A stretch of DNA of 50,082 nt, counting the filler, from Dimargaris cristalligena (Eukaryota): assembly GCA_003614675.1 (NCBI GenBank). It is 2 parts of 2 records of this genome, joined end to end, with 100 filler letters (N's around TTAATTAATTAA, not from the genome) between each part and the next. Parts side by side here need not be neighbours in the genome. Positions count along the whole stretch, not along the records: positions 1 to 25,113 come from ML002572.1; 1 more part is not named here. One strand, 5' to 3'. How positions within the stretch are numbered: position 1 is the first letter of the stretch; every line of letters begins with the position of its first letter. Shown here in pieces: positions 6,396 through 47,726 of the stretch. Both the position numbers and the translations under genes were made by a program. A model generated the notes under the pieces. It saw only the letters and a program-made list of their open reading frames with translations. It was not told the origin of the DNA and did no database searches.

Positions 6396-7577
6396 GCTGG
6401 GTCCGCTGATGGTATGCAGGTGTATGCTATCGGGAATAAGGGGCGAATCCTGGTTCAACAAGGACTGCCGGGGTTGACAATGGCCCGAAATACCTCCGAG
6501 TTATCGGGTATGGGCATATAGGGAGAGAGGGAGGAAGAAAGAGAGAGAGGGAAGGGTAGGAGGAGAGCGAAAAAAGGCCTAGGTAAATTGAATAGAGAAG
6601 GAGGGAGAGAGGACTGTTGGCCTGGAGGTGTATCATCTTTTCCCTTTAGCCCAGCAGCAGTTACGCATACACATACACGGGGCAGGTGCTTATGGATGGC
6701 TGTATTAGCACGGCGGAGTTTTTAGGGATGAGAGTGGCAATGGTAAATATATTATACAACTAACCGGCCGTCACCACCCCCGTGCTGTAAGCCAGCCTAT
6801 GGCACCTGACTCTCCTCTAATCATCGCTGGGTCAGGCCATCCCATAGTTCCAGTGTATCAACAGCGGCTATTTATACGCCCCGTGGGCTCAATGTCTAAT
6901 TCCCTTTGATTCGTATATATGCATACATACAAAATCTCTCTCCTCTCCATCGTGGACCTGCAATTTCACTACTTCCCGGGGCCTGGTTATCCTTCTCTGC
7001 TTGACTTTCTTTAACCCTATTATGCCCATTGCGTGCTCCCTCCTTTCTCACCTCTCTCTCTCTCTCTTTCCCTTTCTTTTATCATTTCCCTTCAATACAA
7101 TACCTATCGCTTCGGAGCTCCTCATTACCTCGACCTGCATTTAACCTTTTCTAGTCTACCGTATCTCTCTCTCACGTATTTAAAAAGCTTATTCTCCCCC
7201 CCTACATCTGCGCCCACCGGGGTCAAGACCATTCCACCTCGTTCTACCAGGCGGTGCTTGTTCTGCTCCCGTTCCTTCGCCCCGGGTCCCTCCTCCTCAC
7301 TGCAGGTCCCGTATTCTCCCAGTTTACCCCTCACCCCGTGCGATTGCGTGCGTGTTTCATACTTCAGGTCCCATTTACTTTGGTTCTGCCCCCCCACCCC
7401 TCCCCGCAAACTATTCCCCTCTTTGCATTTTATTCGCCTTCACTCCGTGTTTTATCTGCCGTATACCACTGTATTCTTCCGCCTCCCCTCATTCTCATTC
7501 TCCTTTTCGCCTAGTCTGGCCGTAGGCCCCAATCCCAAGCGTGTGGCTCATATAGTCCCCCCTGTCTCGTGGTAGCC

Positions 7578-10500
7578 ATGGGTCTCACTGGCTGGTTTTA
7601 TTCGGCTCCTAATAAGCCCGGCGCCGTCACTCCCGAGGCCGAAGCGGCTCCAACTACTGCCGAACCAGCTCCCGACGACCTCCCGACCCGTGAAACGAAC
7701 CAGTCACACTCCGAGCCGGAGGTGCCACAGTCCTTAAGCTCCGCCGACATTTCCTCTCCACCCACTCACCACGCGGCATTCAGTGAATCCATCCGCCCGA
7801 ACGAGCTCCCGCCTAATGGCGAGGGCCACGGGGTTCGCAGTCAGCCACAAACCCTGGTTGAGCCCCCAGTAGTTGTACCACCACCGACGCAACCGACATC
7901 CCTCATAATACCCAGCCTCCCTGCCTTGGTAGATGGGGTTCTCGTCGATTCACACACACAGGGTGCTCCACAGTCGTCGTCCCACCCGTCCGTTCCACCT
8001 GTATCAAACTCGCCGGCAGGGACTACCGCCTCAGACGAACCCCTGCCAGAACCTGAGGGTACCGAACCACCGGCTCCTCCTACTGGTCGGCAGTCGTGGT
8101 TTGGCTTCTGGTCGTCTGCCCCAGCTCCCGCTTCGGCTCCACTATCAGCCTCTTCTTCACCAACGGCCCCGCCCATAACTTCCTCCCCTCCACCCCAAAC
8201 TTCCTCCCAGACCCACTCGTTTTCGCCTGCGCATGTCTCTGGCCCCGAGCCCATTCCTCTCCCGTCACCAGAATCTGTACCCCAAACGGAGACTCCGCTT
8301 GCCGAACCGGACACTGCTGATTCCACTTCCCCTGTCCCCGGCCTCCCATTGACTGAGCACCCTAACGATTCCCCGGCCTCGACTAGTCCTGGGCAACCAC
8401 CTGCTTGTGAACCGTCTACCCCCACTTCGCCGGAGCGGTCAACTCCCAATCCCCTCACCGGTACCCTGCCCGTTTCCAGTTCAGTCTGGCGCTACCTTTT
8501 CTCCGGCTCCTCCCGGCTAATGACCCAGGGCCCCCGCTCTGTCTCTAACCGCCCGCCACCCGGTCTTATAACCTACACCGGGTCCAACCCGCAAAATCGG
8601 AATCCTTCGGCCTCAACTGGTACTTCGGAGGCCCCCGGTGCACCTGAATCCGTATCCACTACCCCATCCACCCCCATTCCTATCCAAACCATGGCCAAGG
8701 CCAATGGTTCGTCGGGCCGTCTTCAGGGGCCGCGGCGGTCATCGTCCGGAACCCCCGAGTCCCTTCCCGCCGTGGCCAAACTAGGGTCATCCTCGCCCTC
8801 CACTGCCGTACAATACTCCTCCGCCCATCAGGGTGGTCATAATAGTAAACCCTACGCCGCCTCCATATCATCTCGCAAGTCCAGTGCTAGTTTGCGATCC
8901 CACGCACTCTATTCGCTCCGGGCCATCACCGGGCAGGAGGGGGATGTCACTCCACCCCTCTCGACCCCGGGCCGTGAAGATAGCAGCGGTGCCCATACTC
9001 CCATGGGGGTCTCTCGCCCAAGCACCCCGCACCAGGGTGGTTCCCCCGACACCTTTACTATGGATCAGGACCCTCCGCCGGCCAATCCCGCCCAAGCCCC
9101 GCTTCCTGTGGCCACCAAGCCAACCCTCCGACCAGCAGGTAGTTTCTTCTCCCTTCGGCGCAAGAAACCGGCGGCGGACCCCTTCACCACTGACAACTTA
9201 ACCAAACGGCGGAGTGTCGGCCCCGAGACCTTCGCCCCGCGGCAAGAATCAACGCCGGCCCCGTCCGCACCCTCCACACCCGTTCATAAGACTACCCCAC
9301 CGTTGGCCCGTACCAATAATCACTCACCCGTACCCCGCCCGTCTCCTGTACAAACCACCACCGTCCAGTCGACCTCCAGTCGGGAGGCCCCTCGCCCCAG
9401 CGCCGGTACTGGTTCGGTTTCATCCCGACGTTCCTCGCTGGCGCCCTCTTCCACGACCCCCCGTAAGAATACCGCCCCATCGTTACTAACCACCGTGTCC
9501 CATTCACCCAAGGTCAATGGCACTACGGCGGTCGCCACTGTATCGGGCACTTCAACCACCAATGCCACGGCAGCAACCGCCTCGGCAGAGGCACTGGCTA
9601 CGGGGCCTAATTACGTCTTTCCGACCCCAGCTGACCTCAATCGGGTTATCTCTGCTCAGCGGCAGCACTGGGCCGACCACCTGGTTCTATGTCACCAAGA
9701 CCAGTCAGAAGGCAATAGCGATGCAGCCGAATCTCACTCTCCCACCCGTACCCTCTGGAACTCCGTGGTCCATACCCTGGGCCATTATTTACACCCCTGG
9801 GTGGCACCGCCCCCCCGCATCAGCCCGGATGGTTCCATCCAGGCCCCATCTGACCGCCGGCATAGTTTTGCCGTGGGTGGTCCTGGTAGCCCCTTTTCAG
9901 CTTCACCACCGGTTTCGGCGGGTACCCGACGCTCCCTGGATGGCTGTCATCCAGTACCTGATACGAAATCCTTCCCCCGCCTTAACCCATGGCTGTCAGA
10001 GTCTCCCGAATGGCAAAAGCCCATGAAGAACGTCGTCATTATTGGAGTTCACGGCTGGTTTCCAATGAAATTCCTTAACAAAAGTAAGTGATAGTTTAGA
10101 TATGCATACTACATGTATGCGTTGGTAGGCGGTGATGTTTTTTAGGGACCTGCCGTCGGACTAAGTGTAATTATGTGGGTATGCGTATGAAGGCATGCGG
10201 GTGTTTATACGCAGTATTGGTCAGATTCCATGACGATTAGAATAGCCAAATCAGTTTTTATCCCGTCTTTCCAACACTGTTTTCCCAGCCGCGTCCTGTT
10301 GCATCCGCCCGCGCCTTTTGTTTCACCCATGTGTTATTCAGCAGCTAGCGAGTCCAGCACCAGCAGTATCCTTTATTAACCCATATTTTCCCATCCAATA
10401 ACTATTCTATTATCCATCATCTCTGATCCACAGTCATTGGTGAGCCCACCGGAACCTCGAGCAAATTCTGTGAGAAGATGTACGAGGGCTTAATCACCTA

Positions 10501-12460
10501 CCTCAAGGATAAGCAGGCTACCTTGGAACGAACCTGCAACCACTGTGGCCACTGCATCGATCTGTCCGAACTTTCGACTACCGGTAGCTCGTCGTATTCC
10601 GAAGGGCTGGATATCGACCCCGATTTTTACACCGATTCCGACCACGAGTCCGATGGGACTGAGCGGGACTCCGCAACCGCCAGCGATCCGTATAGCCTGG
10701 TCAACCATCTCGAATCAGTGAGTCTCATCCCTTTGGTGGGCGAGGGTAAGATTGAGGATCGTGTCAATGCCCTATGGGACCAGTTGGTGGAGTCGGACAT
10801 GGCATTCCAGCACCAAGCCATGCGTACAATCCCGCTGGTACGTCGGGCTTGGCACCAGGACCCGGATGGTGACCTTGTTTGGCTACCGGCCACCGTGCGA
10901 GCCCAAATCCAGATACAACAGGTGAGTAAACAATCTCGACGAGTGGTCTCGACAACCACTCGATCTGCAACCGACCCCGGGGTCGCCAGCCCAACCCTGG
11001 GCTCAACCCCGGATTCAGGGAGTACGGCGGTGGCGGCATCCAGTGGAGAACCCTTCATGCGGTTCCCAGCACCCGGAGCGGGTGCCCTCCCTACTCCTCG
11101 GGACCACCGGCCGTCACCCTTGGAACCGACAGCCTCCCACTCTCGCTCAGGGTCCACCGTGGGTGACGACCCCTCCAAGGCTGGTCCCTCTCTTAAGCGC
11201 CCTCGGCGGTCCCCGCCCACCACAAAGCGACTCCTGTGCCCCAAGTGCCACTGCAGCACCATTATACTTCGCCAGGACTCCTCGTATTCGCAGCATCGGG
11301 ATATATTCCACACCCAACGCTCGTCCGACCGTAAACAGACGCCGCGGATCAGTATGATGCCCTGGCTGCCGGCCCTCTACCAGGCCGATACGGTCCTTAT
11401 TGCGACCCACTCCCAAGGTACTCCGGTATCCACATTGCTGTTGGATCGGCTCATCACCCAGGGCCTGGTTAATCCCCAGCGGCAGCGGGTGGGTATGTTA
11501 GCCATGGCCGGTATTTCGCATGGGCCCTTCTCCTACCTCCGGGATAACGTGGTGGTCAAATACTTTGAAGCCGAAGCGGCGCGTGAATTATTTACCCTTG
11601 CCAGCCCCGACTCGCCCGTGAGCGTTAAATTCCGCCAGGCCATGGACCGGGCGCTTAACGCCGGTGTCAAGGTGGTGACCGTGGGTAGTATGGTGGACCA
11701 GGTAGTGCCCCTATACTCTTCGATTGTGCACGGTCTCTCCCATATGAACGTGTACCGGGCCATTTATATCGACGGTGCCCACTTTAGTGGCGACTTCTTG
11801 ACCGACCTGCTCATCTTCGCCATCAAACTACGCAATTACGGGCTGCGGGATCACGACCTAGTGGTCCACATTAGTGAAATTATCGCCGGTTCGCTTTATA
11901 CGGGTACACCAGGCCACTCTACGATTTACAACGACGCCCAGGTCTATGAAACTGCGGCCCGATGGGTGATGGAATCCATTCCGTCCAGCCACCTGGCTGA
12001 TCCTACAGCGGCCTCGGCGGGCTTTTTCCAAAAATGGGCCACGTTCCGCAGTCGGTTCCCCACCCGCGAAACCCTTGTCGCTCCGATCCGGGCTAAGGTT
12101 CATGATCTTTTGGGCCACTCAAACGGGGCCTCCCAGCCCACCGAACCCACTATGAACCAGAGCGAGCCCATTCGCCCGGCTGATGATACCTCGCCGGGGA
12201 CCACACCCGACCCCAAAGACGTGGACCCCGCCCCATCGACCCCATCTTCCTTCCAAGATTTTCAGCTGGAATCGCGCAATAATCCGTATTACCTTCCCTG
12301 GATAATGCGCGGTCTCTTAGAGGACCCCCTCATTCTGAACCACCCCGAGCTTGGGCCAGATTTAGCCATCCTAAAGCAAAAATTCCTTCAGTGGAACCCC
12401 ATGCAAAAGAACCTCCGGGATCTGAAATTCCGACTGGAACCTTTACGGGCCAGCCTCTAG
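7578..12460 (+). CDS. YML020W-family uncharacterised protein (about 1510 aa); exons 7578-10083 and 10434-12460
   Basis: GCCATGG start. Intron GTAAGT(10084)...CAG(10433) joins the frames into [29 protein letters not shown]. Later motifs L.GEGKIEDRV, ATHSQGTPVS, AMAGISHGPF, GSMVDQVVPLYSS, GHSTIY and NPYYLPWIMRGLL match the fungal YML020W family as I recall it. Pro/Ser-rich N-terminal 800 aa. Confidence 0.85.
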
Positions 12461-20597: not shown

Positions 20598-20699
20598 CTA
20601 CATAATAGAGCACTTGGAATCGTCGGTACATTTGGCGGAGGGGTTGGAGGTGTTATAGGATTTGGTGGATGGCCGACTAGCTGAATTGGATGAAGGTGC
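20598..20699 (-). CDS. Putative alternative terminal exon of the AN1 zinc-finger gene, ending in CaaX box CSIM
   Basis: Branch-like GACTGAC (20757-20763), pyrimidine-rich tract, then CTACAG acceptor and APSSNSASRPSTKSYNTSNPSAKCTDDSKCSIM-stop. Phase-0 compatible with donor CCG|GTGGGT at 21238/21237. Confidence 0.7.
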   Translation of the reverse strand, partial: APSSNSASRPSTKSYNTSNPSAKCTDDSKCSIM

Positions 20700-21153
20700 C
20701 TGTAGCGCGGGGAGTGGGTGTAGAAGTAGTACATTGTAAAGGAACATCAAAAAAGGGTCAGTCAATATAGGATCCCGTAGAACCAAGTTGGCCGCAAAGG
20801 TTGGTTAATATACAGCGTATTTATTATAATCGGGAAAATACAGGGCTAGTTTTGTACAACTGGTGTAGGCATATCGACCCAGACGTGGGTTCAGGCATTC
20901 TAAATGGGATCTTAGATATGACATGACATAACAATCTCCCCAATGCTCCAATGGCACAGATTCTATTCCGCCTCCATAAATTGAAGATGGGCAATATCAG
21001 TAAAAATGATATTACACTAAGACACGTCATTGCGGATTCCAAGTTCGGCAAAGTCGAATGACGACAACACACTGAACCGTCCCGTCTCCTCCACGGGACA
21101 AGTACCCCTTATGTGTATATATATATGAGTGGCAGTGGGTTCCAGAGAGCGGG

Positions 21154-22250
21154 TTATTCAATGGCAATGCACTCCGGGGGTCTTTTATCCTCGAGAGCAT
21201 CCAAATCAATAACAGTAATAGGAGAAGGGGTACCCACCGGAGTCTGCTGGCCCTTCGACTGAAGGTTTTTTTTCGGACCAGCCGTCGAGGGGGACCGGAA
21301 CTTATTAAGTAGAACCGACTGGATGACTTTGGACGGTGCTGATCGGGGTCCAGGGCACTGGTGGTCCGTCTCAAAACGGTGCTTCAGGCAAAACTGCACC
21401 TGGCACTTGGGGCATTTGGCCGACACAAAAACCTTGGCTTTACAGGTGCGGAATTGGCAAACGGGCTTGTAGGCCGGCGCCGACAAGGACGTCCCCGGGT
21501 CGGCACAGCGGTTGGCAATGTGAGTGTCCATTCGGAGGTTCGGGTCTTCCCCGCGTGGAACGGGAACGGGCTTGTGACAGAGCGGACACACAGGTACCCG
21601 GACGTCCCGGGCCTGGTGGCCGTTGGCGCACGGGTGGTCATCGACTTTCCAATGTGTCTCGCTATCGTGAATTCGAGGTTCAGTGTGGGGCAAGGCGCAG
21701 AGTCAGAATAGCAACTATCGGTTAGACCATGGGAGAGGGAGACTACAGTGTATATTGTATAGGGTCCAAGACGCGTATATATCATTTTTTTGGCAAACAA
21801 ATAATGAAGAGGGTGGCGCAATTGGTAGTCGGGAGAATTTCGACTAAACGTCAATAGAGGGATACTTACCAGTAGTCCAAATGGCAGAATTGACAACGGA
21901 ACGGCAGGAAGTCTAGTAACCGAGGTAGAACGCAGGAAAATATGGATAAACCGACAGCAAGGCATAGTGGGTAAGGGGTTAAATGAAAGCTATCTCAACC
22001 GTAATATATAGGCGGATAATGAGGGCGTAGTACCCCCTCTGCCTATCCAAACGAGGCTCAGGGTTCGCTATGGCGCCCCTGAGCCCATCAAGCACGGATG
22101 GCCCGGCTGGAGCAGGACACTTAGCAGATGAAGCCCGGAGACTCGCGCGAATGGGACATGTCCGACTAACATGGAGAACAACTTAAAAAACATACCAAGC
22201 TGGCGGCATTCGGCCAGGGCACATTGGCGACCGACATGGGGTAACTCCAT
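21154..22250 (-). CDS. AN1-type zinc-finger protein of the AIRAP/ZFAND2 type; exons 22250-22196, 21912-21870, 21661-21154
   Basis: Spliced product MELPHVGRQCALAECRQLDFLPFRCQFCHLDYCETHWKVDDHPC...DVRVPVCPLCHKPVPVPRGEDPN..MDTHIANRC...CQFRTCK...CPKCQVQFCLKHRFETDHQC: two AN1 fingers around a CxxC/H/C finger. Canonical GTATG and GTAAGT donors and TAG acceptors with matching phases. Confidence 0.93.
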
Positions 22251-23913: not shown

Positions 23914-24385
23914 AGAGCCAAAGGTCTTGGCATTTTTTTAGATTGAATATGTACCATTGATGTACTTGATTGGGCCATGCATGCAGGTAATTGGCACACT
24001 CATATGAGTGATTGGTGTATGCATTAGTATGCATATTTTTTACATATAAGGGATAACTTTTCCCCCTCTTTTTTTTTCTGTATGTCAATTTCTTTGTATC
24101 AGATTTTAGGTATCAATTTTCTTTTATCTTTCTTTTATAATAAAACTACATCTATAACTACTGTGGATATTTGGTTTATATACTTCAAGTTGTGGTTACC
24201 AAGGACCAACCTTTTGAGCTTCCAAATAAGTATTTTTCATATTGGATTACTTTGGTTAAAAACTTTATACAGTTGGTTTTATTAATATATTTTTCATTTG
24301 AGTGACAAACCAGTTCACCTGGAGAAGCCACCCTGCCCTTTTGATATAATTTTGTTATTCATTTTAGTGGCTTGATACTACCACA

Positions 24386-24490
24386 CTATGACACCAGGGG
24401 TAACTATGGGAGGGTTAATATGGTGCTATAAGGCTAAATAAGGACAGATGATCATTAAGTTGGGATTAAGTCAGATTAGGAGGGCCGACA
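24386..24490 (-). mobile_element. LTR family A terminal fragment
   Basis: CCAGGGGTAACTATGGGAGGGTTAATATGG...GATTAAGTCAGATTAGGAGGGCCGACA matches about 14920-15023. Confidence 0.85.
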
Positions 24491-24880
24491 GAGCTACAGG
24501 GTCAATTTTAATCATGGTAACTAACATAGGTTCCTCTGGATAACTATAGCTCATTTGCCCCATTCAACTCTTATTTTAGTAACTTTAGAGGTGGCCCTGG
24601 CATCATCAAATTTGTGCTATTGGCACTGCCTAATAAATATTGATAATGACTTATATATACTACCTTCATGTAGTCTGGGATTTAGATATTTTGCCTGGTT
24701 GTTTATTAACCTAAATAAAAGTATTTGAGAAGTGGCCCTTTATCCACCCATAACCAAGTAAATATAGCCATATTTCTGTAAACTCAGAAAACCCCATGAC
24801 TAGTGCATAGCTAAACCCACCTTGCCTATTAATTTAAACTAGCCATGGGATATCTATTATAGAATATTATATATGACAGC

Positions 24881-24962
24881 TATCAGCCCTCCTAATCTGA
24901 CTTAATCCAGACCTAATGATTGCCCATCTTCATTAGGCCTTATAGTGCCATATTAACCCTCC
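24881..24962 (+). mobile_element. LTR family A terminal fragment, opposite orientation
   Basis: TATCAGCCCTCCTAATCTGACTTAATCCAGACC...TATTAACCCTCC is an imperfect reverse complement of 24409-24490. Confidence 0.85.
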
Positions 24963-25113
24963 TGTAAAGAACTGAACTCAAATCCTTGAAAACTGAACTT
25001 TATTCAAAAAAATAGGTGATAAAAAGGGAAAGGTGATGATAGATGTAAAGAACTGAACTCAAATCCTTGAAAACTGAACTTTATTTGAAAAGATAGATAA
25101 TAAAAGGGAAAGG
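24963..25113. repeat. Tandem duplication, 81-bp unit, about 1.9 copies, running into the gap
   Basis: TGTAAAGAACTGAACTCAAATCCTTGAAAACTGAACTTTATT...AAAAGGGAAAGG starts at 24963 and again at 25044. Confidence 0.9.
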
Positions 25114-25213
25114 NNNNNNNNNNNNNNNNNNNNNNNNNNNNNNNNNNNNNNNNNNNNTTAATTAATTAANNNNNNNNNNNNNNNNNNNNNNNNNNNNNNN
25201 NNNNNNNNNNNNN
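25114..25213. other. Artificial contig/scaffold linker (44 N + TTAATTAATTAA + 44 N)
   Basis: Exactly 100 nt and symmetric; the palindromic 12-mer places stop codons in all six frames. Confidence 0.97.
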
Positions 25214-25640
25214 AGTAGGCACACTTATTAGTTAGTACAAGGGGGTGAGTATATATAGAGTTTATTGAGGAAAACTGGGGGATATGAATAAGCCAAGGAA
25301 ACTAACTGGTCCCAATAGGGCTCAGTTATATATATGTGGGGGACCACTCCAGAGGGAGATCCCTGGGGGAAGGTACCCTTAAGATTAATAATATGAGGAA
25401 TAAGCCAACCAGATGGCCATGAGGACCTGGAAGACTCTAATGGTAACCAAAAGAGTCTCTGGATTACCAATTGAGTAATTGGTGCAAAGAGGTGGAGTCC
25501 AGAAGGGGAAGGGTTATATGATATAGAAGGATCCCATAGTACTGGGGGGGAGACTATGGGAAGTTACATATGGCACTATATGGCCCAGTCAGGGTGGATG
25601 ATCACTACACCTGTATTAAGTCAGATTAGAAGGGCTGACA
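25214..25640 (-). mobile_element. LTR family A copy truncated by the gap
   Basis: AGTAGGCACACTTATTAGTTAGTACAAGGG...TTAAGTCAGATTAGAAGGGCTGACA is collinear with about 14598-15023. Confidence 0.88.
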
Positions 25641-25649
25641 GATGGGACA

Positions 25650-26300
25650 GTTATGTCAATAAAATGCCCATTACCTTGCAGTTTTGGCCTTTATACTATA
25701 TATCATAAATTCTAACATTTGTCAATATGGGTAGGATTTTAAATCCCATCTAATTAGGGGCAATAGGCATAATATATAGTGGAAATATGGGAAACCAATA
25801 GCATATAAATGAAGACTGCTCATAATACTGATAATGAAGTGATGATAGAAATATAATTTTGCTTGAATTATCTGAGAATTAAGGTAATTGCTTTTATAAT
25901 ACATACACAGGAGCTGTACTGCCAGGGGTTAAGACAATTTTCCCTTTCCGAGACTAACTTAACTAGTCATTATTCCTCACCCCATGATGCCTGCACACTC
26001 CAGATCAGTAGTTATGCCTTTGCTGCAAACAATGCTCACACTAGGATGAGCAAGTGACATCAAAGTCTTCTGTATCCTACTTTCAAGAATGCCCCAGCAG
26101 ATCCAAGGCAATTTTGTCTTCCATTTTCCATATTCTTTTCTTCTTCACTCTACTCTCAAGAAATGCCCCAGTGGATTCGAGGAATTTTTATCTTACATTT
26201 TCCCATATATCTTCTCTTTCCCTTTTGCACAGTGTTCAAACTTGAAGACCCAGCCAGTTTTTCCCTTTGTGGTTTTATAGTTATTAGTCCATCTGAAGAT
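25650..26300 (-). pseudogene. Possible decayed DNA-transposase remnant
   Basis: Minus-strand frame with stops: GWVFKFEHCAKGKEKIYGKM*DKNSSNPLGHFLRVE*, loosely BED-finger-like; CpG-poor like the neighbouring repeats. Confidence 0.25.
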
Positions 26301-36400: not shown

Positions 36401-36747
36401 CTCAGAACTACCGGCTAGTATTCCAATCCACTAACGAATATTGAGGAACGATCGGGTTCTTTAATTGGTAATTCAAATAAAACTGTATAATTACAAATTG
36501 CGGAGATTAAAGAGCAAGTATAAAGGGGGTCGGGTTATTACGCCCTAGAAAAAAGTTTACAAATAGTCAGGTATATGACTGACCAGTCTGGACGACCGGG
36601 CTGGGCTAAAGCCCAAATGGTCCAATAATACATGTCCGAGGAGTACGAGGGAATAGGCTAGGCGCCGATTTGAGGGCTCCTTCAGAAATAATAATACTAA
36701 TAAAAAGTCCTATAAGGGAATCGGATAAGACCAACCACTATTTTGAT

Positions 36748-37143
36748 TTAAATCTGGTCATTAGCGAAAGTGGAACGACGGTTGAACACTTTGCCGCAAG
36801 GGCCGCTCAGACACCCAGTACCACAGTGGGCGTTGGTGAAGCCACAGAAACCCTGCTTGCTACAGCACGCACCGCTCTGGCAGGGCGTGGCGGCATTGCA
36901 ACTGCCGGAACCACTGGGAGGGGGATTGGGGGAAGCGGGAGTGGGGGCACCCTTGCAAGGACCGCTCTGGCAACCGAAGCCGCAGTGGGTATCGGTGGAA
37001 CCACAGAAGCCAAAACCGCTGCAGCAGGTGCCGTTGGCGCACGGCTTGGAAACACTGCAGGTTCCGTCGGAACCCTGGGCCAGGGAGGAAGCGACGAAAA
37101 CCGAGAGGGTGGCGAGGAGAGCGACGGTGAAGAACTTGACCAT
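36748..37143 (-). CDS. Secreted double hevein/CBM18 chitin-binding protein, copy 1
   Basis: Signal peptide MVKFFTVALLATLSVFVASSLA; two 8-Cys modules (C-x5-C-x4-CC-x5-C-x6-C-x3-C-x4-C) containing CCSGFGFCG and CCSKQGFCG, joined by a Pro-rich linker. Confidence 0.93.
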   Translation of the reverse strand: MVKFFTVALLATLSVFVASSLAQGSDGTCSVSKPCANGTCCSGFGFCGSTDTHCGFGCQSGPCKGAPTPASPNPPPSGSGSCNAATPCQSGACCSKQGFCGFTNAHCGTGCLSGPCGKVFNRRSTFANDQI

Positions 37144-37280
37144 GGTGGAAGTGTGGGGGTGGGTGAGGGTGTGTTGGGATGGGTAAAAGTTGGTCGGGGT
37201 AGGCGTGTCTGGTAAAAGTGTTGGCAGGTACTGACTGAAAGATGATGATAATGTTACTGGGGAAGGGTGGAGAGTAGCTA

Positions 37281-37286
37281 TTTATA
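37281..37286 (-). promoter_or_regulatory. TATA box of hevein copy 1 (equivalents at 39608-39613 and 41697-41702)
   Basis: TATAAATAGC is conserved about 140-155 bp upstream of the ATG in all three copies. Confidence 0.7.
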
Positions 37287-39080
37287 CCTTCGCACTTCTA
37301 TGGCTGACAGGCTAGTTGGGAAGAAAGTAATCAGTCGGTGATATGCGGATTGGCTTGCCCGCCTAAAGCCGTAGAGATATGCAGCAGATTCAAATCGCAC
37401 TCACAAGTCTGGCCTAAAAATTAGTGCTAGTGCTACAATGACCCAGGGATATAAGGATCAGGTGGCTTCAAAGTGAATCCCATAGCCCAGCTTTTGAACA
37501 ATAGGCCGCGCCATACTCATACTGATACTGCATCTGGCATACAATTCACACACAGGAGGGGTCAACTGAGCACAATAAGCACGGCCTGGGTGGTATTGTT
37601 TGGCGTCCACTGGTGGAAACCCAGGCTATCGGACTTGACTATGGGACAGTCACAAAGGTGTGTCAATGGCAATGGCTTTACGTAAAGGGTATTGGTCAGA
37701 CAATCAACGCAAAAGTGCCACTCGGTCTATAAGGGCTTGTTCAGGCCGACTATTGGAATGGCTGGATGGGAATAAAAAAATCCCCAAGCTCTAAAATATC
37801 CAATATTGAATTGGAACAATAGGTTTGGAGTTGTTGGGAAAACCAGCTAGTCAAGGTATATTGCCATACCCTTAATTAGGCAATCCAAACATAAATGAAT
37901 GTTCACAACCCCCACCCTCATAACCATTGTTCTGGTCATAAGTAAATGTTAACTGTGGAAGTCATCGAAGTTATAAAATCCTTTAGCGTACAATATCACT
38001 GAAAATGGTCAATACAATCGTTCATACAGTGTAGAACTACGTGCTTGCAGCTTCAGATTGGGATATCCAGACCTAATCTCGCACAAGGCGGCCCGTCAAA
38101 GGGTAGGGCGACCATTTCAACGATGAGAGTGGGCGTGATACTTTTTGTTAGTACAGCCGCTATTGTAGCAATCAAAGCACATACGCGATTCAGAAGAGCA
38201 CGCTAAGTACGGATGACAGGTGGGACCTCTGACAAACTGAAACGAGTCAGACCAAAGTCCAACGTCGAACTGTGTTAATGAACCGCGGGGCCTAGGAAAA
38301 AGCGAAAGTTGTTCTCTAAATTCAAGCAATGTCATATTCATCGGTGCATTGGTAGTAAGTGCAGTACCATTTTCTCGTACTAGATAGTAGGCATTGTAGA
38401 AATATCGTTTGGATTATCAGAATACCCAAAGTTAACCTCGCAGACGGAAGTAATCACCACAATGCGATAAATTATTGTTCACGAAAGCGAGAATATCTTA
38501 GAGCCAGTCCAATTAGCGACCCAACGAAGTGATAGTATAACCTTCTGCAGGGGAAGTGTGAGTGAGTTTGGTGCCAGACTCCAATATTTTAGACAGTTAA
38601 TCAGGCCGCCGGCTTGCGAATCGAGTGGCATTATGGTTTAGGGATTAACTGAGGATCTACAGCCTTCCCAATGAAGTACAGCTAATGCCGTACTTTTTTA
38701 TTTATGATTAATGATCCAATTTCTACAAATGATCAAAATTTGGCGCCAACATAGTAAACACCCAAGTTATTACTGGATTATCCAAATATTAGGGGGGAGT
38801 CGAAAGGTTTATTTACAGACTTAGGAGAAATACAGTTGGATTGGGAATTAAAGACCCAATGTCAATAGAGTGAATATAAAACAGGAGTGGTAAAAAGTAT
38901 GGTGGAAATACATACAGGATTGGTCAAATATATGGCTTCTGGGAAGTATTGGGTTTAAAGTGGCGAGTCGACTAATTATTCGAAGATGATTCGACTGCTG
39001 TGATAAGGTATTCGGGAAGTTGGGTGCGATGGTGGTCCCGACTAGTCATAGTCGGAGGCCTAGTTCATGGTTACTAAGAG

Positions 39081-39470
39081 TTAGTTGGTATGGGGGCTGG
39101 AGCGACGGTTGAACACTTGACCACAGGGTCCGCTCAGACAGCCGGTACCACAGTGGGCATTGGTGAAGCCACAGAAGCCTTGCTTGCTACAGCACGCACC
39201 GCTCTGACAGGGCGTGGCGGCATTGCAACTGCCGGAACCATTGGGAGGGGGATTGGGGGAAGCGGGAGTGGGGGCACCCTTGCAAGGACCGCTCTGGCAG
39301 CCGAAGCCGCAGTGGGTGTCGGTGGAACCACAGAAGCCAAAACCGCTGCAGCAGGTGCCGTTGGCGCACGGCTTGGAAACACTGCAGGTTCCGTCGGAAC
39401 CCTGGGCCAGGGAGGAAGCGACGAAAACCGAGAGGGTGGCGAGGAGAGCGACGGTGAAGAACTTGACCAT
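39081..39470 (-). CDS. Secreted double hevein/CBM18 chitin-binding protein, copy 2
   Basis: Almost identical to copy 1; tail QVFNRRSSPHTN. Confidence 0.93.
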   Translation of the reverse strand: MVKFFTVALLATLSVFVASSLAQGSDGTCSVSKPCANGTCCSGFGFCGSTDTHCGFGCQSGPCKGAPTPASPNPPPNGSGSCNAATPCQSGACCSKQGFCGFTNAHCGTGCLSGPCGQVFNRRSSPHTN

Positions 39471-41148
39471 GGTGGAAGTGTGGGGGTGGGTGAGGGTGTG
39501 TTGGGATGGGTAAAAGTTGGCCGGGGTAGGCGTGTCTGGTAAAAGTGTTGGCAGGTATTGGTTGAAAGAGAATTATGATGTTATTGAGGCAGGGTGGAGA
39601 GTAGCTATTTATACTTTCATCCGCCCATGAGTAACAGGTCAGCTCCAGCGAATGTAGTCAGCCGGCGATATGTGCATTCGCTTTTCCACTTACAGTTGTA
39701 CACACATACAGCAGATACAAATCACATCAATATGCCCCGCCTAAGAAAACTAGTGCATGTATCACAATGGCCCGGAGTATAGGCGCCGAATGGCTTGAAA
39801 GTGAATCATACGGCCTATTCTAGAACAATAGGCCACACCATACTCACAAATTGCCCAGGATTGGATTTTCGTTGTGAATAGGGTCGATGGGACACAATGG
39901 CCACAGGTGGAATGGTATTGTATGGTGCGCACTGGTGATCATCCAGGCTATTGGACTTGGAAATGAGACTGTTCCAAGGGGTGTAGGTGGCAGGACCTTT
40001 GCATAAAAGTCATTTTCCAAAAAATTGTCGCAAAAGAGTTATTCGGTCTATAAGTGTTTCTTCAGGCTGGTCATTCCAGTAGCAGAGTGGGAATAAAATA
40101 ACTCCCAACCTCTAAAATATCCGATATTGGACTAGGACAATGGATTTGGAGGTATTGGTATAATCCGTTAGTCATGCTATATTGCTATATCCTTAATAAG
40201 ACAGCGAAAACATATGTGATTATCGAAAGTCCTTCTACCTATTGTTCTACATAAAAAGCAATATTAACCGTGCCAATTGTTGCGGTCACAAAGTCCCCAT
40301 GCATTCACTGTCGCTGAATATGAACATATCACTAAAGAACAGGGCGACTCTGCCAATATATTGATTATATATGACGATATCTATTATATTTACCGCTACT
40401 GAGATTTTAAATACACAGTTGGGGACACCAGTAATATGGAGTAGGCCGGATCAGAGTATTTCTGGAAATTATGGCCATATAGCCAAGAGGACTAAGGAAA
40501 CGTGACGGTCGCCAACTAGGCCTTTAAGCAGGATATTTATCGGTGCTATAGTTATAGTCACATTGTTTAAATTAAAAATGCATGATTGGTTCCACATGCA
40601 GAGTTGTTAATGATTTAGAACTCCTGCCTGATTAATTATAAACCTCAAATGTGACCCTGCTATCTTGGAAAGATTCACTATGATATGATACCTGTTCACT
40701 AATGACAGCGCGATTACTATAAACCCGGCATATTTAGCGATAATATGAAGTTAAAGCTAATGGTATGCCATACTATTAGTGGCCACCCATCCAAAATCAA
40801 CGAATGGTAGAGATGTGGTGTCAATATAATACCCACTCAAGATGTCTGGGGATTAAAGTAAACATAGGAGGTGAAACTACAGGTTTATTTACAGACTTAT
40901 GAGTAACACAGTTGGATAGAATTTCCAGGGCCTACTGGTAATATAGTAAATTTAAGAATAAAAAAATGCGGAAAAGTAGTGCGGAAAATTATATAAATTG
41001 ATACAATATATATCTTGAGAAGTGTTAAGTTGAAAGCGGCGAATCAACTAATGGTACAGAAATGGGTCGACTAATGTGACAGGTATACGGATGGTTGGAT
41101 AGGACAATAGTCCTGCTCGGCACGGTTGGCAGTCCAGAACATGATCAT

Positions 41149-41544
41149 TTAGAGTTTTTTGGACTGGGGGCTGGAGCGACGGTTGAATACTTGACCACAG
41201 GGTCCGCTCAGACAGCCGGTGCCACAGTGGGCATTGGTGAAGCCGCAGAAACCTTGCTTGCTACAGCACGCACCGCTCTGGCAGGGCGTGGCGGCATTGC
41301 AACTGCCGGAACCATTGGGAGGGGGATTGGGGGAAGCGGGAGTGGGGGCACCCTTGCAAGGACCGCTCTGGCAACCGAAGCCGCAGTGGGTGTCGGTGGA
41401 ACCACAGAAGCCAAAACCGCTGCAGCAGGTGCCGTTGGCGCACGGCTTGGAAACACTGCAAGTTCCGTCGGAACCATGGGCCAGGGAGGAAGCGACGAAA
41501 ACCGAGAGGGTGGCGAGGAGAGCGACGGTGAAGAACTTGACCAT
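41149..41544 (-). CDS. Secreted double hevein/CBM18 chitin-binding protein, copy 3
   Basis: ATG at 41544; almost identical to copies 1 and 2; tail QVFNRRSSPQSKKL. Confidence 0.93.
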   Translation of the reverse strand: MVKFFTVALLATLSVFVASSLAHGSDGTCSVSKPCANGTCCSGFGFCGSTDTHCGFGCQSGPCKGAPTPASPNPPPNGSGSCNAATPCQSGACCSKQGFCGFTNAHCGTGCLSGPCGQVFNRRSSPQSKKL

Positions 41545-42895
41545 GACGGAAGTGTGGGGGAGGGTAAGGCTATGTTGAGGCGGAGTGGGGTGGGGTGGGT
41601 GAAGGTTGATCAAGGTAGGTGTGTCTGGTAAAGAAATTCACAGGTATCGGTCGAAAGGTTATGGTAATGTTACTGAGGGAGGGCGGGGAGTCGCTATTTA
41701 TATTACAGGGTAAACAAGGGGAACTGAGAATCAGGTCAGGGTACCTTGTTGCTGGGAATTTGTTTTCTAGTCAATGCAGTAGATGGGCTATTGACATTTC
41801 GGCACATTCTCGGTGATCCATCACAATCTGGTATTATCGGCGAAGTTTACAGGTATACATAATTCAATAAGCACAATGCAACCAATTGTTATGTTATCTC
41901 TATTACCCTTGAATCTAGGGTATGGAACAATAGCAGTGCCAATTTTCCCCATCAATATTGGGCTTTGGAAGTGATGCACGAGATCTTCACTTTGGACACA
42001 ATGGCTACTTTATGGTTCACGTCATCAATGATCCTGGTTTGCTGAAATTTTATATACTACAACCCCATTGTGGATATCAACTATACCGTTGAGAGTTTTA
42101 CCAAACGGCTGAAATATCACAGCAGTGGTTAAACAACTGTAGACAGCCGATAGACTAAATGCTTGTTTATTTTACTGTAAGTGGAACAATGGGTTTTTAA
42201 TATGGATAGGTAATTATAGCTAATACCCAGTACCTATTCAAAACTATAGCTTTACCATACGAGCTTTAACATGCCAGTGCTTATTGTTCCAGGGTGAATG
42301 TGGGCTTTCCAAATCAGGAATCATATTTGCACACGAGCTTAACATACTGGTTCCCATCATCGAATGTATGTACCTGGCTGGTAATGGTTCCAAATCACGT
42401 GTACTTGTTTCAGTATCGTTACTAGGCTCTGGTTTTATGGTGCTAGGCTGGGGAATGCTGATGGAACCTGCGAGCGCTTTTTCGGAATGACCTAATACCG
42501 ATGAGGTCGGCACTCAGATGGCAGATAGGGACATTGGTCGGAATTGCCATGGAGAGTTCGGGAGTGAGTGCACTGTAGATTGAAATACTCGAAGTTATTA
42601 ATATTCGGAGAGCGAAAGGTACAATGTATACGAAAAATATATATAAGTAAACAAAGAGTTCGGCATACCCTTAGAAATATATTAAGGGATTTTTAGTAAT
42701 ATTATGAACTGAACACAAGTTGCCATTTCAAAAAAGCATACTCTAACAAAGTGGGACTGGATATGGTTGGTCCTATAACTCATCTCCATTACAGGGTTTA
42801 TGGTGACGTTTAATAGTGGGTATGATGCATGCCCCAATAGTAAGTTATTAAATTATCATCCAGGATGGATACTTTCCAAAGGCCTCTAGGGTTTT

Positions 42896-46620: not shown

Positions 46621-47726
46621 ATGAGTCTGCTGCGAACCTGCTTCCGCCAACTCGCGGGTCTCCCAACCCCCGCCGTTCGATCTCAACCCTCCCACCGTAA
46701 GTGGGTCACATGCCACAGCCGGCCTTCTTGCCCTTACAATGACCCTGGGCGACTGGGATCTACTATACTGTGGGGTTCACGACCAGGGTGGGTTTAAACC
46801 CTCGACTAAACTCCTCACAACTAACCTTGTATTGATTTTCAATGTATATTGCATACCCCTAACTCTACTCTACTCTCCCTCACTCATTCATTCATGGGTG
46901 GGCCCTTCCCCAGAGATCCAGGCCGTCCGTTGGGCTACCAAGAAATCGGGTGGTACGACCAAAAACAATCGCGATTCACCCGGTCAGCACTTGGGTATCA
47001 AGAAATTCGGAGGTAAGCTGCAACCCAATGAGTCAGGGGTAGAAAGAAGTATAGGTTGGTTTAGCCTACGGCGTTGGACCTGAGCCCAATAATCTGGCTT
47101 GGTCCCAACCCGCCTGGTTTAATTATCTACGGTAATACCACCCCCAAAAACACCAGGGCATTTAAATCTGATGGCCAATTCGACCGCAACTTCGAACGCC
47201 AACTCACTAAAATCTCCATTATACCGATGCACCCTTAGACGAACACGTTATTCCGGGCAACATTATCATTCGCCAGCGGGGTACTCGATTCCACCCCGGT
47301 GAAAATGTAAGGAGTGGACTTATCATCTGATTTAATTCATATACTTGCGTATATGTGTTTTAATGACTTTGCGTATCGATATAAAAACAACATGCATTTC
47401 TAACCTGGGTTTAATCATTGCGGACTCTGTATCGGGATTATTATTATTGATTTTTTTGGGGGGGGTCTTGTTTGCTCTAGGTGGGTATGGGTCGTGACCA
47501 CACTCTGTATGCCAAGATTGACGGGTATGTGAAGTTTTACCGGCAGCGCGGTGGCAAGTACAACAAAGAACGCCGGTTTATTGCCGTAGCATACGACAAG
47601 GACGCTACTTTCCCGCGCGATCCTGACGCGCCCCGCGACCGCCGGTTCAAGCTGGTGGATGTTCGGGCCTTCGAAGCGGCCCAACAAAAGGCGCAGGCCG
47701 AATACCGGGCTGAGCATGAGTCTTGA
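46621..47726 (+). CDS. MRP7: Mitochondrial ribosomal protein bL27m; exons 46621-46696, 46914-47012, 47239-47306, 47481-47726 (162 aa)
   Basis: Basic presequence [14 protein letters not shown]..., then [71 protein letters not shown] (L27 signature). All three introns are GT-AG and in phase. Confidence 0.96.

Follow-up and report, generated by a model that had tools for sequence, protein, structure and literature searches.

A ZFAND2-type gene of Dimargaris cristalligena that may yield a CaaX-ended and a non-prenylated isoform through alternative 3' ends

Gene model, candidate last intron and CaaX exon

The stretch of DNA analysed here, 50,082 nucleotides (nt) with filler included from assembly GCA_003614675.1 of Dimargaris cristalligena (hereafter the window), carries a ZFAND2/AIRAP-type AN1 zinc-finger gene between positions 22250 and 20598 of the minus strand, the 3' end of which can be read in two ways: one leads to a C-terminal CaaX box and the other to an acidic tail that resembles a SUMO-interacting motif (SIM). 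D. cristalligena is a mycoparasitic fungus of the Kickxellomycotina. All coordinates of the gene given below refer to the minus strand, and statements from the literature refer to the accessible sections of the articles cited by PubMed Central (PMC) number, or, for PMC6784888, to its main text.

Exon 1 (22196..22250) starts with the ATG at 22250-22248 and comprises 18 codons plus 1 nt, with which the first AN1 finger begins. It is followed by intron 1 (21913..22195, 283 nt, GTATGT...TAG), the 43-nt exon 2 (21870..21912) and intron 2 (21662..21869, 208 nt, GTAAGT...CTGAC...TAG), all of which were read from the sequence and checked in the assembled model. Exon 3 starts at 21661, and its part common to both readings (21238..21661) encodes the end of the first AN1 finger, a ZFAND2-type C2H2 finger, the second AN1 finger and a linker, predicted to be disordered, up to ...QQTP. 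When exon 3 is read through, the protein ends in ...QQTPVGTPSPITVIDLDALEDKRPPECIAIE before the TAA at 21156-21154. This read-through model of 201 amino acids (aa), assembled by coordinates, matches the database protein P0003 exactly, and the protein is 100% identical to the hypothetical proteins H4R33_002326 and BJ085DRAFT_41183 of D. cristalligena.

The identity of the gene is given by its domains, in agreement with the name proposed in an earlier, preliminary description of this locus. Pfam assigns two stretches to PF01428 (zf-AN1; E value 6.5e-21, 74.6 bits against a cut-off of 27.9) and residues 54-88, between both AN1 fingers, to PF25403 (zf-C2H2_ZFAND2; E 3.1e-17). The Cys and His columns of the fingers are invariant or near-invariant in an alignment of 50 sequences. 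In the AlphaFold2 model the fingers have a predicted local distance difference test (pLDDT) score of 84-96, and the values fall to 51-62 from approximately residue 141 to residue 201, a region that is thus predicted to be disordered.

The phase-0 candidate donor GTGGGT (CCG|GTGGGT; 21232..21237, with the GT at 21237-21236) lies inside exon 3, directly after the common part, and reads Val-Gly if the intron is retained. The read-through tail that starts at this point (21154..21237, VGTPSPITVIDLDALEDKRPPECIAIE followed by TAA) contains a SIM-like VIDL followed by acidic residues and has a hydrophobic-acidic C-terminus. The candidate alternative last intron spans 538 nt (20700..21237) and ends in a phase-0 CAG acceptor (20702-20700), which is preceded by a CTGAC branch consensus (20757..20761) and an AG-free, pyrimidine-rich run; the branch A lies 58 nt before the acceptor G. 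Downstream, a terminal exon (20598..20699) reads APSSNSASRPSTKSYNTSNPSAKCTDDSKCSIM*, that is, 33 codons up to CSIM and a TAG, and the spliced model assembled by coordinates has 207 aa. The CSIM box is present in the product if, and only if, the 538-nt intron is spliced. The locus therefore has the layout of a composite terminal exon of the LMNA or IgM type: the donor lies inside the exon, the retained part contains an in-frame stop, and the in-phase exon that follows has its own acceptor and branch. When the sequence was re-read, every feature of the preliminary description was found on the minus strand at its position, and its observation is confirmed in that respect.

Endings of the type Cys-aliphatic-aliphatic-X-stop occur 19 times on both strands of the window (100,164 nt), and in four of them a YAG acceptor is found downstream of a CTRAY branch and a run free of AG. 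One of these four is the candidate exon and another is the true acceptor of exon 3 in the wrong frame, so that three comparable pseudo-exons besides the candidate exist in 100,164 nt. By our own arithmetic, the chance expectation for such an exon within the approximately 860 nt past the stop is ~0.03, or ~0.01 when a match of phase is included. The codon usage of the CaaX exon is coding-like: with log-odds trained on eight long open reading frames (ORFs) of the window, the exon scores 0.25 per codon in frame 0, close to the coding mean of 0.28 (standard deviation (sd) 0.18) and far from the off-frame mean of -0.43 (sd 0.30). The segments of the candidate intron score -0.00 to -0.29 per codon in their best frame, at or below zero.

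For comparison, six introns of the window were derived from ORF continuity rather than from RNA; they have the donors GTATGT, GTAAGT (four times) and GTAAGG and lengths of 159 to 350 nt. In those with an evident CTRAC, the branch-to-acceptor distances are 41, 69 and 77 nt, and the 58-nt AG-free spacing of the candidate intron resembles this long spacing. A run of at least 55 nt free of AG follows only 6% of the 150 CTRAC sites in the window. The 77-nt case, an example of unusually long spacing in this genome, belongs to a bL27-like ribosomal protein gene (47307-47480, plus strand; a name based on our own reading of the peptide, with no search behind the label), in which a GTAAGG intron has a CTAAC branch 77 nt before the acceptor. 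A repeat or transposon origin of the 538-nt intron was rejected, as no second copy is found within the window. The possibility of a different donor, by which the acidic tail and the CaaX exon would end up in a single protein, was also rejected: the sole GT past the motif is in phase 2 and cannot be paired with the phase-0 acceptor.

The preliminary description also proposed a poly(A) signal for the read-through transcript. The AATAAA does lie inside the candidate intron, at 20820..20825, and a TATATATATA run (21116..21125), a possible but weak 3'-end efficiency element, lies ~30 nt past the read-through stop. With 37 AATAAA on this strand per 50 kb and 66 TATATA per strand per 50 kb, both motifs are too frequent in the window to be accepted as evidence for an intronic poly(A) site; the location of the AATAAA stands, and because its frequency is compatible with chance, it carries little weight as a signal.

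The sequence comparisons of the family show that a CaaX ending is its norm, and the ending is taken to be ancestral. A family search (full HMMER) returned 2047 matches at E up to 0.001. Cys occupies position -4 in 87 of 155 homologues, or 89 of 160 once cluster members are added (eight proteins fetched later are left out of these counts), and in 75 of these 89 the final residue is S, Q, M, A or C, which supports the earlier proposal of a CaaX ending. Among the relatives, Dispira simplex has the ending CCMW, Linderina CIIA, Basidiobolus CLIS and Hyaloraphidium CSVS; both Dispira models terminate in or at a CaaX-type tail, and one further homologue ends in CSIM, the same as the candidate. CSIM is classified as a farnesyltransferase-type CaaX box, for which prenylation is predicted. 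A likeness of the candidate exon to the Dispira tails seen by eye (ASRPS and SSRPRP, DDSKC and DDDRC) was rejected after a shuffle test (p 0.33-0.65).

A metagenome scan for DNA of relatives reduced 375 pattern matches to five loci, none of which is from a close relative. One of them (locus L005, 3195-4655 of a 30-kb contig) is a distant ZFAND2 homologue with 59% identity in its best segment, many small exons and two ubiquitin-interacting motifs (UIMs). Its CaaX box (CSIA) is located on a separate last exon, so a CaaX box on a terminal exon of its own is not unique to Dimargaris.

Two observations were made on annotated relatives. At the Basidiobolus ranarum locus K7432_008011 (P0014, P0159), two isoforms are annotated with different N-termini and a one-residue difference immediately ahead of the CaaX box (KEKSGKSK vs KESGKSK), which suggests the use of alternative splice sites near the 3' end in another early-diverging fungus. 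The Dispira simplex model P0034 (150 aa) passes straight from the beginning of the first AN1 finger into the middle of the C2H2 finger and is probably a mis-spliced ab initio model.

Conservation and SIM-likeness of the read-through tail

Tieghemiomyces parasiticus has two copies of the protein (P0005, P0158), both of which end in ...EVIDLEALEDKRPVVIVID. A 12-residue motif of the tail is identical at 11 of 12 positions between D. cristalligena and both copies, whereas the intervening linker has ~9 identities in 57 columns (our own count on the BLASTP alignment) and the whole proteins are 58% identical (BLASTP). The local alignment of the tails scores 57, a value reached by none of 2000 shuffles. 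The partial model of Dimargaris verticillata ends in ...VKVGEISATGPIYIDSSSDDDLSAPASAIVLD, which has other letters but the same build, with a hydrophobic core, an acidic/serine run and a hydrophobic-acidic C-terminus. In a MAFFT alignment of these four sequences from three species, the columns V, G, I, D, D, P and I of the tail are invariant and the stop falls at nearly the same place. A second conserved element is the C-terminus itself, of the form psi-x-psi-acidic (IAIE, IVID and IVLD). The alignments indicate that the tail has stayed conserved while the disordered linker around it diverged, and that it is under selection as a peptide in at least three species of the Dimargaritales. The preliminary description had named an unconserved ITVIDLD read-through as one of two findings that would overturn it; the tail is kept in Tieghemiomyces and has a counterpart of the same type in D. 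verticillata, and that objection is removed. A protein search with the tail only (residues 160-201, E up to 10) returned two candidates, of which only the query itself matched. Within exon 3, the tail scores 0.06 per codon, with frame 0 the best of the three, and the exon 3 body scores 0.10.

In the MAFFT alignment, Val-Gly opens the tail in all three species, and in D. cristalligena the two codons are the GTGGGT donor. Since a phase-0 donor of the form GTNGGN reads Val-Gly when its intron is retained, the retention of Val-Gly in an otherwise scrambled linker would be expected if the splice site, and hence the downstream exon, were conserved in the relatives. By our own estimate, and given the MAFFT placement, the occurrence of Val-Gly in two further lineages by chance would have a probability in the order of 1-2%.

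The two Tieghemiomyces copies lie on different contigs and differ by several substitutions and a 5-residue indel in the linker, vs one change in the 37-residue tail. They are probably alleles or homeologues, because the assembly has 66% duplicated BUSCOs, and a non-haploid state has been suggested for it (PMC9866270).

Short linear motifs are typically found in disordered regions, and the tail lies in such a predicted region in the D. cristalligena model. The hydrophobic cores conform to the SIM patterns psi-psi-x-psi or psi-x-psi-psi (ITVI and VIDL in D. cristalligena, VIDL and VVIVI in Tieghemiomyces, IYI and IVL in D. verticillata) and are flanked by acidic residues or serines (D-ALED, E-ALED and SSSDDD, respectively). 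A SIMb-like pattern in the last 60 residues singles out D. cristalligena and the two Tieghemiomyces copies, 3 of 160 homologues; the D. verticillata tail, which was fetched later, would miss this strict pattern.

The SIM core of PIAS1 is VIDLT (PMC4907222, PMC3901395), with which the VIDL of the tail agrees, as the preliminary description had implied by assigning it to the SIM consensus. The likeness extends to the psi-psi-x-psi core, the acidic residues or serines that follow it and the disordered context. There are differences, in that the Thr of (I/V)DLT is Asp or Glu in the Dimargaritales tails, Tyr takes the second place of the core in D. verticillata, and binding is a prediction in this case. 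The serines beside the SIM of PML constitute a phospho-SIM, and their mutation to alanine lowers the binding of SUMOylated proteins (PMC4276917); the SSS-DDD after the hydrophobic core of D. verticillata recalls such phospho-regulated SIMs. Because VIDL with acidic residues matches the PIAS1 core and is joined by the SSS-DDD flank, SUMO binding is the best functional guess for the tail.

No UIM, VCP-interacting motif (VIM) or other Pfam motif was detected in the tail by Pfam, and in the whole D. cristalligena protein no UIM was found by Pfam at E up to 0.1 or by a UIM-like pattern. The reading of the tail as a degenerate UIM was rejected, as neither Pfam nor the pattern supports it. The UIM-like pattern occurs in 65 of 160 homologues and in none of the five Dimargaritales proteins then in hand; given this difference, a swap from the reading of ubiquitin to the reading of SUMO is conceivable.

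Alternative isoforms and competing explanations

The explanation that we favour, with a probability of approximately 0.6, is that splicing of the last intron, which has a weak donor, competes with its retention or with early 3'-end formation and gives a farnesylated and a non-prenylated isoform, in a manner similar to lamin A/C. The locus would then be a single ZFAND2 (AIRAP/AIRAPL/AIP-1-type) gene with a composite 3' end, from which both mRNAs are made. Splicing of the intron 21237..20700 would join the disordered linker to the 33-codon CSIM exon, and the product would be the ancestral, membrane-anchorable proteasome/p97 adaptor. When GTGGGT is not used, through retention or 3'-end formation within the intron, 27 more codons would be translated to give a soluble protein that lacks the prenylation site and ends in an acidic short linear motif, VIDL-D-ALEDKRP...IAIE. 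The ratio of the isoforms would be set by the weak donor; a donor that is weak and also obliged to encode Val-Gly fits with partial use. The interpretation in the preliminary description, a switch between a prenylated tail and a SIM-bearing tail, is thus partly supported.

The two predicted products would resemble the two types of ZFAND2 protein in animals. In agreement with what the preliminary description states on the CaaX endings of these proteins, a review lists neither a UIM nor a CAAX box for AIRAP/ZFAND2A, two UIMs and a CAAX box for ZFAND2B, and a UIM and a CAAX box for AIP-1 (PMC11799193). The D. cristalligena gene shares with AIRAPL/ZFAND2B of mammals and AIP-1 of Caenorhabditis elegans the two AN1 fingers that flank a ZFAND2-type C2H2 finger and, if the last intron is spliced, would also share the C-terminal CaaX box. 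The CAAX box of AIRAPL is required for localisation to the membrane of the endoplasmic reticulum (PMC4626058), and ZFAND2B behaved as a farnesylated protein in a prenylome study of human T cells (PMC12315405). Unlike the animal proteins, the Dimargaritales proteins have no detected UIM, no VIM was seen in D. cristalligena, and the candidate CaaX box of D. cristalligena sits on an exon of its own, downstream of an intron that contains a stop. The functional role of the 201-aa isoform would correspond to that of the soluble vertebrate paralogue ZFAND2A; vertebrates make this split with two genes, whereas D. cristalligena would make it with two 3' ends of one gene, and a SIM-like acidic tail is not on record for ZFAND2A in the literature consulted.

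The closest parallel in layout is LMNA, in which lamin C has its own six-residue end and the CAAX box belongs to prelamin A (PMC6523539). In both cases one gene would provide a CaaX-less protein with a short isoform-specific end and, by splicing to a downstream exon, a farnesylated CAAX protein; LMNA belongs to an unrelated animal family, and its isoforms were demonstrated experimentally, whereas those of D. cristalligena are derived from conservation. Isoforms of one gene that differ in a C-terminal prenylation motif are also known for human NAP1L4b, CRACR2A and others (PMC12315405). These belong to other families and organisms, and no example among them pairs the loss of a CaaX box with the gain of a SIM-like motif. 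No isoform or CaaX switch of ZFAND2B is described in the accessible text of PMC12315405 (subscription papers and supplements were outside the search).

Several observations weigh against a switch. Both public annotations of D. cristalligena carry the 201-aa read-through form alone and end at the TAA. The peptide of the CaaX exon has no significant similarity to the tails of six relatives beyond composition and the CaaX box itself (shuffle p 0.06-0.69), the GTGGGT donor is unlike the GTA-type donors of all six inferred introns, and with 538 nt the candidate intron would exceed every one of them. The placement of Val-Gly depends on the aligner, as MAFFT aligns it and BLASTP does not, and AATAAA and TATATA are no rarer in the window than expected by chance. 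SIM-like hydrophobic cores are, in addition, frequent in proteins by chance. These points are in part those that would favour a gene with the 201-aa protein as its sole product, in a lineage that swapped the CaaX box for the acidic tail and in which the CSIM frame is either a relic in decay or an ORF that occurs by chance in the 3' untranslated region; the Tieghemiomyces and D. verticillata models, which likewise end in the acidic tail, agree with this. We consider this explanation quite improbable. The tail is common to genera whose proteins are just 58% identical, and a CaaX exon abandoned before they diverged would be expected to have degenerated; the reading frame, CaaX box, acceptor, branch and AG-free run are nevertheless intact, as is the coding-like codon usage, against a chance expectation of ~0.01-0.03 for the exon. 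The weight of the annotations is also limited by how they were made. The low-coverage genomes were annotated ab initio by Funannotate (PMC9866270), and the words 'transcriptome' and 'RNA-seq' occur zero times in the main text of the single-cell genome paper (PMC6784888), so that both public annotations appear to have been made without transcripts. Ab initio annotation would read through a weak donor by default.

The opposite possibility is that the intron is always spliced, that the 207-aa CaaX protein is the only product, and that the tail is an artefact which ab initio gene calling introduced into three genomes. The CaaX ending as the norm of the family, its presence in or at the tail of both Dispira models and the complete set of splice signals are what this explanation would predict. 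An intron, however, would not be expected to keep a peptide identical at 11 of 12 positions, an open frame from the donor and a similarly placed stop while the exonic linker diverged, and the codon score of the tail is best in frame 0 and similar to that of the exon 3 body (0.06 vs 0.10 per codon). Constant splicing is very improbable in our estimate.

If the read-through isoform exists, the assignment of its tail as a SIM is tentative, possible rather than probable. The tail may instead be a linear motif of another class, with both isoforms made as proposed above: it may be a degron, direct the localisation of the protein, or offer a docking site to Cdc48/p97, the proteasome or a chaperone. 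Hydrophobic-acidic motifs serve many partners, the psi-x-psi-acidic C-terminus lies outside the classical definition of a SIM, and no literature that joins AIRAP with 'SUMO-interacting motif' was found in a search that left subscription papers and supplements outside its scope. The match of VIDL and acidic residues to the PIAS1 core, the retention of the motif type (core, SSS and DDD) in D. verticillata despite its changed sequence, as in phospho-regulated SIMs, and the lack of a UIM, VIM or other Pfam motif speak against this alternative, which we regard as somewhat unlikely.

An extension of the favoured switch to the whole order is unlikely: a conserved weak phase-0 donor, marked by Val-Gly, would decide between a farnesylated membrane-bound proteasome/p97 adaptor and a soluble form, a SUMO-targeted AIRAP whose tandem SIM-like tail reads poly-SUMO, and a lineage in which the UIMs of the family were lost would in this way link the proteotoxic response to arsenite and heat directly to SUMO chains.

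If the switch is real, an early-diverging fungus obtains from one gene the membrane-anchored AIRAPL-like and the soluble AIRAP-like adaptor for which vertebrates use two paralogues, and, should the tail bind SUMO, a SUMO-reading member would be added to a family known so far for contacts with ubiquitin, p97 and the proteasome. The new points would be the occurrence of such a split within the ZFAND2 family, its pairing with a SIM-like tail and the conservation of that tail across an order of early-diverging fungi. The five Dimargaritales models of the locus were apparently called without transcript evidence and disagree in their C-termini, and the functionally decisive CaaX exon is probably missing from the public proteomes of D. 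cristalligena.

Other features of the window

The neighbouring genes are housekeeping genes and comprise a COPA/COPB-type coatomer WD40 beta-propeller, ORC2, a Tom37/GST-like protein, a NIPA transporter, a glycogen-branching-type amylase and Snf7. On the plus strand at 7515-12457, a 350-nt intron of the form GTAAGT...CAG (10084..10433) connects two long ORFs with coding-like character; for the joined product of ~1500 aa, Pfam returned no match (E up to 1e-5). Two runs of 44 N (25114-25157 and 25170-25213) lie within an AT-rich stretch (GC content 0.34 in 24001-26000). Three similar sets of ORFs are spaced ~2.0-2.5 kb apart in 36600-41650, for example 36610-37212, 39078-39539 and 41080-41628 on the plus strand. 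Two of the three share their last 20 residues and the third has a similar end, which points to a tandemly repeated unit in this region.

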